A stretch of DNA of 64,000 nucleotides, taken from NCBI GenBank assembly GCA_038087875.1, contig CM075994.1:5396001-5460000 (forward strand). The letters run 5' to 3'. The DNA comes from Malacoraja senta (Eukaryota). The translations under genes and the position numbers were made by a program. The first letter of the stretch is position 1. Each line of letters begins with the position of its first letter. The notes under the pieces are model-generated. The model searched no databases. It was not told the origin of the DNA and worked only from the letters and a program-made list of their open reading frames with translations. Of this stretch, positions 26,501 to 63,788 are shown in pieces.

Positions 26501-29500
26501 GTTAATCTATTCTTAGGAAATTGATAGATGTTTAGATCTAGTAATTGAATTTTGTAATTAGCTCCAATTAGGTAACTAACTAATTATATGCTTTAATTTC
26601 ATGTCATCTAAGTAAGATTGTTTCATATTTATTTCAGAATGCTTCAATCTATAATAACTGAAAATGTCTTTCAGTTATCTTAATTTTTAAGAATGTTATG
26701 GGCTTTTAACTATCCTCGATCACAGCTTTTGTGTTAAGTCAATGGAAAAGCAATAGGGAACAAGATGCTAATTTCCGAGTATGAAAATGGCCATAAAATT
26801 TTTTTTAATACTGAAGTGAATTAGGTGTCAAATTAAACTTATTTTTATGCTTTGTCTGATGGGATAAATTACAGACTTGATTTTTAAAATCTCAAAATTT
26901 TGTAACATTGCTAAGTAAAGTATTTCCATTCTTATTCATGAAGGCAAAGCAGGTACACATTTTTCCGTGCGTCGTCTTCTTACCAGTGCCCTAACCTGTT
27001 CTCTTAGAACACATTTAGATTCCGACTGTAGTCTGATCATAATAAAGGCCTCACTATTACTGCATTTACGGTCCCAATTACACATGGGCATTGAATGATT
27101 TGTGCAAGTAATCCAGGTTTGTTTCAACTTCCAAATTACCCAAACGCTCACCCATTACAATATTCGTCGGCGTATTTAGCAGTTTTGATATCTTTATTAG
27201 TTTTTCCAAATAATGTTGCAATTATTATGTTCTCGCCCCCTCATCGCGCTAGATTGTAAAAAAAAAGCAAAACAAACGCGAAAAGGCAAATTAACATTTG
27301 CAATAATCAAATAAATAAAGTAAGATCCTCACCTTTGTCGACCTGTCAGACACTGCGCAACCAAAATCCCGCGTTATATTGTGCTAACTTATTCCGTTTT
27401 GTTTCTGCTTGACGTTGGCGTTTCCGTGTGATATATAACGGACCATTAGCCTAAGATACTTCTTGATATATTTATAGTAAATTTGAAAGCAACGTCAGAG
27501 AGCTGCATTGAAATAAAATGCTAGATGCAATGACTTACTAATAATATTTCGAAGCCTTTGCAGTTCTGTAAAAGAATGGGACATTTCAAATAGGAAAATT
27601 ATCTACGGATCTGTTCAGTACCTCGAAATCTCTTTCAACAGGGATGCATTTTGTTGTCTGCGTGTAACCCCACTCTCACTCAGCCGAATGATGCTTGTTT
27701 GTTTGTCTGCAAGACCACATAATGATGCCAATAGGAAGATACAAATGTATATCCTGCTTGATCATTACTGCCAATCGATGAACTTTGGATCGAACGACCA
27801 TTCTTCTTTGGTTATTAAATCACGAGTAAATAAGCTGTGTGGTTTCAACTTTAGTTTAGAAGTATTTTAATCGCAAATATCAGCACAGTACAAATTTGAC
27901 GTGCAATCTGTCTGTTCACGAGTGTTTTTGGACGTTTATTTGCGTGAAAAGTATGTGTTTCAATGTTTGTCATATACAGTACAGTACTCGCGTTACCTGA
28001 ACATGACGGTCAACGCTAATTTGTTTCGTTTAAGTTATCGGTTTAACATATGTATTTTGAAAGGAAAAGGCTAAAGAGAAAACAAAAAATGCTTTACCTT
28101 CATCCTTCAGCTTAACCAACGCATCTGTAAATAGAAAGTGGATTAAAAATTACGTATCTAACTGTGATGGAAGGTAAGAAAGTCTAAGATTCGACAAATT
28201 CGACGTTTGAACGTCACTTTCGGATTCGCATGATTAATGTCAGGGACACCTGCTTCAAATAAACCCTCGTTCAGTGTCTGCATGTAGAGACCTCCTGTGC
28301 CATTCAACAGGTCATAAGGTCAAAAGTGATAGGAGTGCAATTAGGCCAGTTGGCCGATCGTCATTCGTCATTCCATCATGGATAATCTATCTCACTCCAA
28401 ACGCCATTTTGCAGCCTTTTTCCCCATAACGTCTGACACCTTTGCAAACCAAAATTAAAAACAATTAAATTGCCGAACAATTGCCCTAGAAGGCCTCAAA
28501 GAATATCCAATGATTTGGCCGCTACAGCCTTCTGTGACAAAGTATTCCACAGCGTTGCCACCCTCTGACTAAAGAATGAATTCTAATAATATCAGATTAT
28601 CAGGAATGCTTTTCCTGTGTGTTTGTGTGTGTGTGTGTGTGTGTGTGTGTGTGTGTGTGTGTGTGTGTGTGTGTGTGTGTGTGTGTGTGTGTGTGTGTGT
28701 GTGTGTGTGTGTGTGTGTGTGTGTGTGTGTGTGTGTGTGTGTGTGCGTTTCGTTTCCAGATTTGGTGGGGTGGGGCAGAAGCATGTCACATAGCAAGAAA
28801 GTTGTTACAATATGGTAAGCTGGTATCGATGTCTCAGCCTAGTATTTTGAATATAAAATCTCAAGCTTTTGATTCTATCGCGACAGTGTAACATTATAAA
28901 GCGCACCATTATATATATTGGTAGCTTCTCTGTTACTCTCATGCGCAGCTCTTTGGAGAGGTTGGCTCATTAAGTATATGACAGTGAACAGAAGCATTTT
29001 GCGATTTTTTGTATTCCGAAATGAAGCACATCGTTAGAGAAAAGCATGACATCCTTTATTTCGTTTTTTATGGCACAATTAATTAAATTCCACGCGTATT
29101 TTCCCAAATAAACTTGTTTCATTGCTTACCGACGTCCTTGCGAATTGATTCCAATTTCTCTAATTCTGAAATTAAAAAGTAATTTCGGCTCAGGTCTCCC
29201 CGCCATCTAAACACAAACAGCTGCATGAAATAGCCGTCAATAGTAACCGAGATCAAAAGTATTTTGAAATTATCTCCCAGTTTTCACATTGTTGCACAGG
29301 AAATCCCACATCCCACAGGTACCAAAGCTTGATATACCATCAACAGTGGCCGTTATTATATTCGTCAGCAATGTTTCCCAGGACAATGCAAGGCGAAGTT
29401 TGATAAATATCCCTGTACAAGTGACCATATATAGTTAAACTGAGAAAGACAATGACAATGAAGTAATTGATAATAAAAACTCTCTTGCTATGCATAATTT

Positions 29501-63788: not shown

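Follow-up and report, generated by a model that had tools for sequence, protein, structure and literature searches.

A micro-exon gene of Malacoraja senta that probably encodes a soluble coiled-coil rod, in a cluster whose neighboring members carry B30.2 exons

In TRIM5 and in the butyrophilin (BTN) genes, a 27-nt exon precedes the B30.2 exon. The chicken BG genes are defined, in the excerpted text of PMC5938342 and PMC4046983, by a signal, an IgV domain, a transmembrane (TM) segment and 21-nt exons. One chicken BG tail, known as zipper protein, has a regulatory effect on brush-border actin-myosin (excerpt of PMC4046983). The DNA analyzed here, called the window, is a 64-kb stretch of Malacoraja senta (C18:5396001-5460000), and its minus strand carries part of a gene that has the coiled coil made from symmetric tiny exons known from BG and butyrophilin genes. 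Its construction is that of a BG tail, yet on the signal, IgV, TM and 21-nt exons listed above, as far as the DNA and relatives searched go, it does not qualify as a BG gene. The link to butyrophilins is only an indirect one, in that 2 neighboring paralogues end in a B30.2 exon. We take the gene as a likely functional member of a coiled-coil(-B30.2) family of chondrichthyans, in which exons of 9 and 12 residues follow an alternating grammar. To judge from its sequence, the product is probably a long soluble coiled-coil rod and not a membrane immune receptor, and in other genes of the cluster such a rod probably leads into a B30.2 recognition domain. The whole explanation that we prefer is a rod gene with length tuning by exon pairs, acting as a headless partner or spacer of its B30.2 paralogues in innate defence, and we give it a probability of roughly 0.6.

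The window was scanned de novo for AG..GT exons, scored on its letters alone with vertebrate splice weights. The first-pass annotation had proposed a hidden gene of 14 minus-strand micro-exons in phase 1-1 without a stop, 10 of them 27 nt long, 3 of 36 nt and 1 of 15 nt, and all were recovered at the coordinates it gave, open and in that phase. Its count of 10 GTAAG or GTGAG donors is also correct (the remaining donors are GTAAA in 3 and GTAAT in 1). The acceptors, which it described as mostly pyrimidine-rich, are uneven: 4 of the 14 (63606, 50592, 45916 and 30570) score about zero or below on the splice matrix. Weak acceptors such as these are what one would cite for chance AG..GT matches in intergenic DNA. 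Over window positions 27401-64000, 9 open exons of 27 or 36 nt have a summed score of at least 5, against a mean of 0.335 and a maximum of 3 in 200 local shuffles done inside 200-nt blocks; the other length and strand classes in the same scan average 0.40. The shuffle controls, the paralogue conservation and the collinearity with a public protein model, both described below, refute the chance reading, to which we assign next to no weight, and they support the hidden gene. On the gene strand, 664 kb of cluster DNA contain 60 exons with a length of 27 nt and 35 with a length of 36 nt, and each remaining length from 12 to 60 nt is represented by 1-14 exons. The symmetric 9/12-residue modules proposed earlier are supported; of the 21-nt length used by BG there are 6 exons.

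The hydrophobic period is 3.47-3.52 in the relatives and in the window segments. Among the 36-nt exons (n = 42), residues 2, 5, 9 and 12 are hydrophobic in 83, 88, 79 and 50%, and among the 27-nt exons (n = 71) the hydrophobic residue is mostly residue 4 (72%). We call class A the exons with hydrophobic residues 2, 5, 9 and 12 (36-nt exons and some of 27 nt) and class B those with hydrophobic residue 4 (most 27-nt exons). Apart from A-A exceptions, the 2 classes for the most part take turns along the chain, and 36-nt exons are adjacent in 0 of 65 neighbor pairs versus a shuffled mean of 7.7. AlphaFold2, given the single sequence of Leucoraja XP_055520636 (P0019, a RefSeq predicted model), predicts long helices with a pLDDT above 90 over about residues 161-250, which together with the heptad periodicity bears out the coiled coil that had been proposed. 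A homodimer prediction for P0019 residues 52-252 gave no answer (score 0.00) and speaks neither for nor against a dimer. By arithmetic, 9 + 12 residues equal three heptads and 9 + 9 equal a heptad and a hendecad. The arithmetic agrees with how the genes have evolved: this copy and paralogue D differ from paralogue P1 by one 27 + 36 pair, or 21 residues; the upstream B30.2 gene has 36 + 27 units repeated in tandem, and P1 has a duplicated nine-exon block of 90 residues. Exon skipping had been suggested as a source of variation, and in relatives it is seen in predicted RefSeq isoforms of 2 Narcine paralogues, which differ by 6, 8, 9, 11, 12 and 23 residues. As annotated, these skips remove single exons and would lose register, which counts against a purely register-keeping view.

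The earlier list of 14 real exons missed 2 internal exons, of 36 nt (31750-31715) and 27 nt (29749-29723), and the final 23-nt stop exon (20831-20809). An alternative acceptor at 31729 would reduce the first of these to 15 nt. The chain of this copy stops at 20809, with a splice donor directly after the stop codon; the last exon has one base fewer than its P1 homologue, which is 24 nt long and open, and the D homologue is 22 nt. The donor after the stop and the base lost relative to P1 count against our preferred explanation. The list probably also lacks a 36-nt class A exon lying within the N gap of the window. D and P1 carry such an exon between the homologues of exons 62833 and 50592, and the D flank matches the window as far as the gap edge at 57167. 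A contig from sequencing run X2, assigned to this copy by its letters at three diagnostic places among the differences listed, enters the homologous exon by 21 nt. The alternation of classes A and B breaks at the gap, and a 12-residue gap in the alignment to P0019 falls there as well. Other candidates were dropped, namely a 10-nt exon and an acceptor near window 27340-27250, for which the paralogues do not keep the frame, and a 21-nt candidate after the last 27-nt exon of P1 that lies within an insertion absent from this copy.

Table 1. Exons of the gene in window positions, and related arrays in C18 positions.
Feature	Position	Strand	Evidence or remark
27-nt micro-exon, class B, phase 1-1	63762..63788	-	Scan; counterparts in D and P1
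27-nt micro-exon, class A, weak acceptor	63580..63606	-	Scan; paralogue alignment
27-nt micro-exon, class B	62807..62833	-	Scan; 8/8 internal residues identical to Leucoraja P0019
Assembly gap, 200 N, probably hiding 36-nt class A exon	57167..57366	-	Exon present in D and P1
27-nt micro-exon, class B	50566..50592	-	Scan; paralogue alignment
27-nt micro-exon, class A	45890..45916	-	Scan; paralogue alignment
36-nt micro-exon, class A	36467..36502	-	Scan; paralogue alignment
27-nt micro-exon, class B	35315..35341	-	Scan; paralogue alignment
36-nt micro-exon, class A	34910..34945	-	Scan; paralogue alignment
15-nt cysteine-containing linker micro-exon	33598..33612	-	D and P1 counterparts flanked by AG/GT; also in P0019
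36-nt micro-exon, weak sites, new	31715..31750	-	Paralogue homology; collinear in P0019
27-nt micro-exon, class B	30693..30719	-	Scan; paralogue alignment
27-nt micro-exon, class A	30544..30570	-	Scan; paralogue alignment
27-nt micro-exon, GTTAG donor, new	29723..29749	-	Paralogue homology; collinear in P0019
36-nt micro-exon, class A	29130..29165	-	Scan; P0019 and paralogue alignments
27-nt micro-exon, class B	28098..28124	-	Scan; P0019 and paralogue alignments
27-nt micro-exon, class A	27539..27565	-	Scan; P0019 and paralogue alignments
Last coding exon found, 23 nt, final codon is the stop	20809..20831	-	Paralogue homology
Paralogue D	C18 4.82 Mb to at least 5.06 Mb; more exons to 5.14 Mb beyond a gap	-	
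Paralogue P1	C18 3.754-3.906 Mb	+	
Micro-exon arrays ending in B30.2 exons	C18:3733606 and C18:5710013	+	Two neighboring paralogues
Further micro-exon arrays	C18 4.09 and 4.40 Mb		

Upstream of the window, minus-strand micro-exons reach at least C18:5608534, at least 148 kb past its end. A chain of 45 exons reads 430 codons and then the first stop (431 codons, the sole stop being at the end), and two further exons of 18 and 24 nt were added on later comparison. The gene likely spans about 190 kb with at least 45 exons, the window segments being about a third of it. The 5' end of this copy is out of sight because homology to D stops exactly at an assembly gap, C18:5612743-5612942, and that no start codon or promoter is seen counts against our preferred explanation. 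A head-to-head arrangement sharing a promoter with the plus-strand B30.2 gene is not claimed, an assembly gap lying between the two. One internal exon of D, 18 nt in length, has a 17-nt homologue in P1 with an in-frame ATG, a candidate start that, on the sequence, would have no domain ahead of it.

The last intron contains a Ty3/Gypsy LTR retrotransposon (window 22172-25865) that is absent from D. Its two 204-nt LTRs show 100% identity, its pol frame is open over 1048 residues (with RT, RNase H and integrase), and it is a young insertion. A long degenerate satellite-like repeat at C18:5530000-5568000 fills one intron of the gene. Other elements in the window are a non-LTR retrotransposon with RT at 11387-15752, its frames broken by stops and its 3' part duplicated around an N gap (14966-15165), Penelope-like fragments at 60248-62511 and 4993-5385 with a GIY-YIG-like stretch under the Pfam cut-off, and L2/CR1-like RT pieces at 59031-60008. 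Within the gene, five tandem 27-nt exons at C18:5486475-5498612 are acidic-polar and low in helix; P1 has one copy, and the set is a locally amplified linker.

This copy is one of several paralogues in a cluster of roughly 2 Mb on C18 (Table 1). One exon-end pattern occurs at 103 places genome-wide, and among the 100 matches listed, 15 are on C18 (3.46-5.58 Mb), 4 on other large contigs and 1, a copy, on a small contig, the others being one repeated element on small contigs. Aligned to D, 44 of 44 exons find a homologue, 42 with AG/GT and 2 with GC donors, and one D exon holds a stop; P1 aligns at 42 of the 44, all 42 with AG/GT. A reverse test, in which 51 candidates were picked in P1 alone to avoid choosing exons in this copy, aligned 42 of them here, 40 with both dinucleotides and 0 with stops, and the two failures are false candidates. 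Neutrality predicts about 24.5 intact splice pairs (P = 7 × 10−8, a value that is overstated because nine candidates did not align and duplicated P1 exons, which are not independent, were counted repeatedly). The dN/dS of the exons is 0.62 and 0.54, and exon identity is about 2 points above that of the flanking intron (88.5 versus 86.5% and 76.3 versus 74.8%). Amino-acid constraint is therefore weak, which counts against our preferred explanation, and conservation is stronger for frame and splicing than for residues. Values of dN/dS near 0.6 would also suit a segmental duplicate, disabled not long ago or truncated at its 5' end, of a paralogue that still works, for example P1, as would the start not found where homology to D meets the assembly gap, the last exon frameshifted relative to P1, the young Gypsy with identical LTRs in the last intron, and the stop-bearing exon of the sister copy D. 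Against such a duplicate, 45 exons run without an internal stop, 40 of 42 splice-site pairs are kept in the P1-picked test, and the intron divergence of about 14% from D would have broken many exons were the copy long dead. We consider a disabled copy unlikely and hold the gene to be very probably functional.

Two small features elsewhere in the cluster are recorded here. A lone 27-nt exon at C18:5377306-5377332 has 96% identity with the exon at 3722020 before the B30.2 gene, shares only about 550 nt of flank with it, has no neighboring exons, and is probably an orphan duplicate. Between the B30.2 gene and P1, C18:3737700-3738161 is a ZFP36-like CCCH zinc-finger fragment, possibly a retrocopy.

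Public relatives were reached stepwise. The family's B30.2 exon leads to Narcine XP_069775385 (P0001; 372 aa, coiled coil and SPRY), the N-terminal part of that protein leads to Narcine isoforms named 'golgin A6-like', and these lead to the catshark models XP_038671249 (Scyliorhinus canicula; 945 aa, coiled coil and SPRY), XP_038671246 (S. canicula) and XP_072329362 (S. torazame), and also to Leucoraja XP_055520636 and XP_055520639. With the Narcine XP_069775384 and XP_069775418 sets, these make up the predicted RefSeq relatives. A phmmer search of 1.84 billion representatives gave 5 matches, every one from a shark or ray. The automatic names include CLIP1-like, TAX1BP1-like, golgin A6-like and A33-like, the models are often partial, several of them at their 5' ends, and P0019 begins in intron-derived sequence. 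The name 'zinc-binding protein A33-like' appears to derive from the B30.2 domain alone; one 'A33-like' accession occurs in a shark skin mucus list in the excerpted part of PMC10707392. No published description of the family was found in the open-access literature, and the ESM Atlas gave no usable lead for the coiled coil of P0004, where the best feature scored 0.77. The family is apparently shared by sharks and rays and undescribed, with public models existing under automatic names.

The joined peptide, which the first-pass annotation had suggested searching, is collinear with one of these predicted models. When the 16 window exons are joined and aligned to XP_055520636, 92 of 151 residues are identical and the score is 416, whereas 500 shuffles of exon order reach 222 at most; the original 14 exons score 318 versus a shuffle maximum of 214. 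The 16-exon alignment has two gaps, of 12 and 21 residues. To the more distant P0016, P0015 and P0011, the chain barely exceeds its shuffles, and to Narcine P0004 its score is not above them. The RefSeq models belong to the same family with the same module of collinear 27/36-nt phase 1-1 exons, and XP_055520636 joins the homologues of the window exons in the same order. That even the 15-nt exon is rightly placed within a predicted model suggests transcript evidence behind it.

The first-pass annotation had assigned the exons to the tail of a BTN/BG-like immune receptor, and had suggested looking past 64000 for IgV, IgC and TM exons. What speaks for such a type I membrane receptor, with signal, IgV and TM exons upstream, in the gap or beyond the DNA examined, is that excerpts of PMC4046983, PMC5938342 and PMC6790196 describe the same logic in BG tails and in the short BTN exons before B30.2, and that the 5' ends of this copy and D are out of sight. 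A V-set HMM built from 11 of 12 fetched V loci of the same genome found 11 of 11 V exons when each was held out (E ≤ 2 × 10−10), and it matched 0 of 11,933 frames (best E = 0.42) in 936 kb that take in this copy, D and P1 along with the DNA upstream of them. None of the 150 scored among 1517 genome-wide IgV candidates is on C18. The 25 kb upstream of P1, which run back without a gap to the B30.2 exon of the previous gene, contain no IgV exon and no TM-like phase 1-1 exon, and no TM-like exon is found in the 150 kb upstream in D. Among 7 shark and ray relatives, including the 945-residue catshark model, SPRY is the sole Pfam domain, with no Ig family, RING or B-box, and no segment reaches TM strength (top 19-residue hydropathy 1.28). 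We therefore set the receptor-tail assignment aside and regard a membrane receptor as quite improbable, with the reservation that the 5' end of this copy lies at an assembly gap and that several public models are partial at theirs.

A B30.2 C-terminus is present in the 2 neighboring paralogues and also in Narcine P0004 and catshark P0016, the latter two consisting of coiled coil and SPRY only, and a head domain is absent from P0011, P0015, P0017, P0018, P0019 and this copy, for which no close B30.2 exon lies downstream on its strand among the 150 scored of 740 candidates. The family's B30.2 domains are 31-72% identical among themselves and about 28-34% identical to ordinary B30.2 exons of the genome. 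Their top match among solved structures is BTN3A1 at 89 bits, which could be cited in favor of the receptor; we do not count the ranking as butyrophilin evidence, as two control B30.2 exons also match butyrophilins first, and more strongly (143-150 bits). Many ordinary B30.2 exons, about 26-34% identical to the family's, occur at C18 6.5 Mb and 9.8-11.6 Mb among the 150 scored of 740 candidates, a probable TRIM-type cluster. C5 carries three B30.2 exons that belong to the divergent subgroup of the family, with a few candidate exons of 24-36 nt (15.35, 17.11, 17.41 and 17.44 Mb), possibly a second cluster of the family. As for linkage to the MHC, class I matches number 88, with 0 on C18 but 86 on small contigs; those to alpha1 and alpha2 at C2938:644508-645131 and 616873-617367 lie in open frames of 502 and 1254 codons, possibly intron-poor class I-like genes.

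Our preferred explanation, the tunable rod, would work as follows. With 9 or 12 residues, each exon would end roughly half a turn off a whole count of helix turns, which would make two register classes alternate, and since 9 + 12 and 9 + 9 pairs keep the repeat, the rod would evolve in length by gain or loss of exon pairs. Skipping a single exon would keep the frame and shift the register. The protein is predicted from its sequence to be a parallel dimer in the cytoplasm. In paralogues bearing B30.2, the rod would be an adjustable stalk for a binding head, and headless copies such as this one may be putative partners, spacers or competitors through the shared rod. By analogy with other B30.2 proteins, the setting would most likely be innate defence, and an immune role of this copy rests on its paralogues because it has no B30.2 itself. 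A bolder version, which we regard as speculative, makes the micro-exons half-turn bricks of a splice-programmed combinatorial defence scaffold, in which pair duplication sets rod length, single skips switch register and with it the choice of partner, and headless members heterodimerize with B30.2-headed sensors; it is equally speculative that such a scaffold mirrors the cytoplasmic half of butyrophilins minus the receptor.

Fast divergence, copy-number turnover and B30.2 heads are more typical of defence genes. The same anatomy would also be expected of a rod that is purely structural or cytoskeletal and has no part in immunity, serving as a spacer or tether in the manner of tropomyosin or a golgin, and the headless models listed above, together with the precedent of zipper protein, in which BG tails can act structurally (excerpt of PMC4046983), lend this something. 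The divergence, turnover and heads of the paralogues fit defence better, and no sequence relation of the rod to golgins or tropomyosin was found, so that we hold the purely structural rod to be the less probable account, though a tenable one. A multi-gene cluster of about 2 Mb, common to sharks and rays, is present in the annotation only as partial, misnamed models. Its 9/12-residue grammar couples exon length to coiled-coil register otherwise than the 21-nt heptad exon of BG, and offers a clean way to test the tuning of a coiled coil by splicing and by duplication of exons. Should members with and without a head interact, cartilaginous fish would have a soluble RING-less B30.2 branch in their immune repertoire, and this would bear on the origin of butyrophilin and BG tails.

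Compared with known systems, the gene shares with the Schistosoma MEGs, as described in the excerpted text of PMC4015677, a coding sequence made mostly of symmetric micro-exons and varied by skipping, but the MEGs are small secreted proteins and no homology is implied. TRIM and finTRIM proteins resemble the family in having a soluble coiled coil leading to B30.2 and expanded clusters; they differ in that the 7 relatives scanned here have no RING or B-box, and in that finTRIM coiled coils are on exons of 96 and 234 bp, not on micro-exons (excerpt of PMC2657112). In butyrophilins (BTN3A and kin; excerpt of PMC6790196), very short exons lead up to a B30.2 exon, as they do in the 2 B30.2-bearing paralogues, but butyrophilins have Ig and TM domains and few short exons, and the family's B30.2 is divergent from the ordinary B30.2 exons of this genome. 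For chicken BG, the excerpts of PMC4046983 and PMC5938342 describe, as shared features, a long coiled coil from many tiny exons with the first codon split, a tandem cluster, a variable exon number and no B30.2. BG genes have signal, IgV and TM exons, where here no IgV or TM was found in the DNA and relatives searched, and their exons are of 21 nt (sometimes 18 or 24) with one heptad each, in the same excerpts. This gene instead uses mainly 27- and 36-nt exons, in alternating register classes, over a span of about 190 kb.
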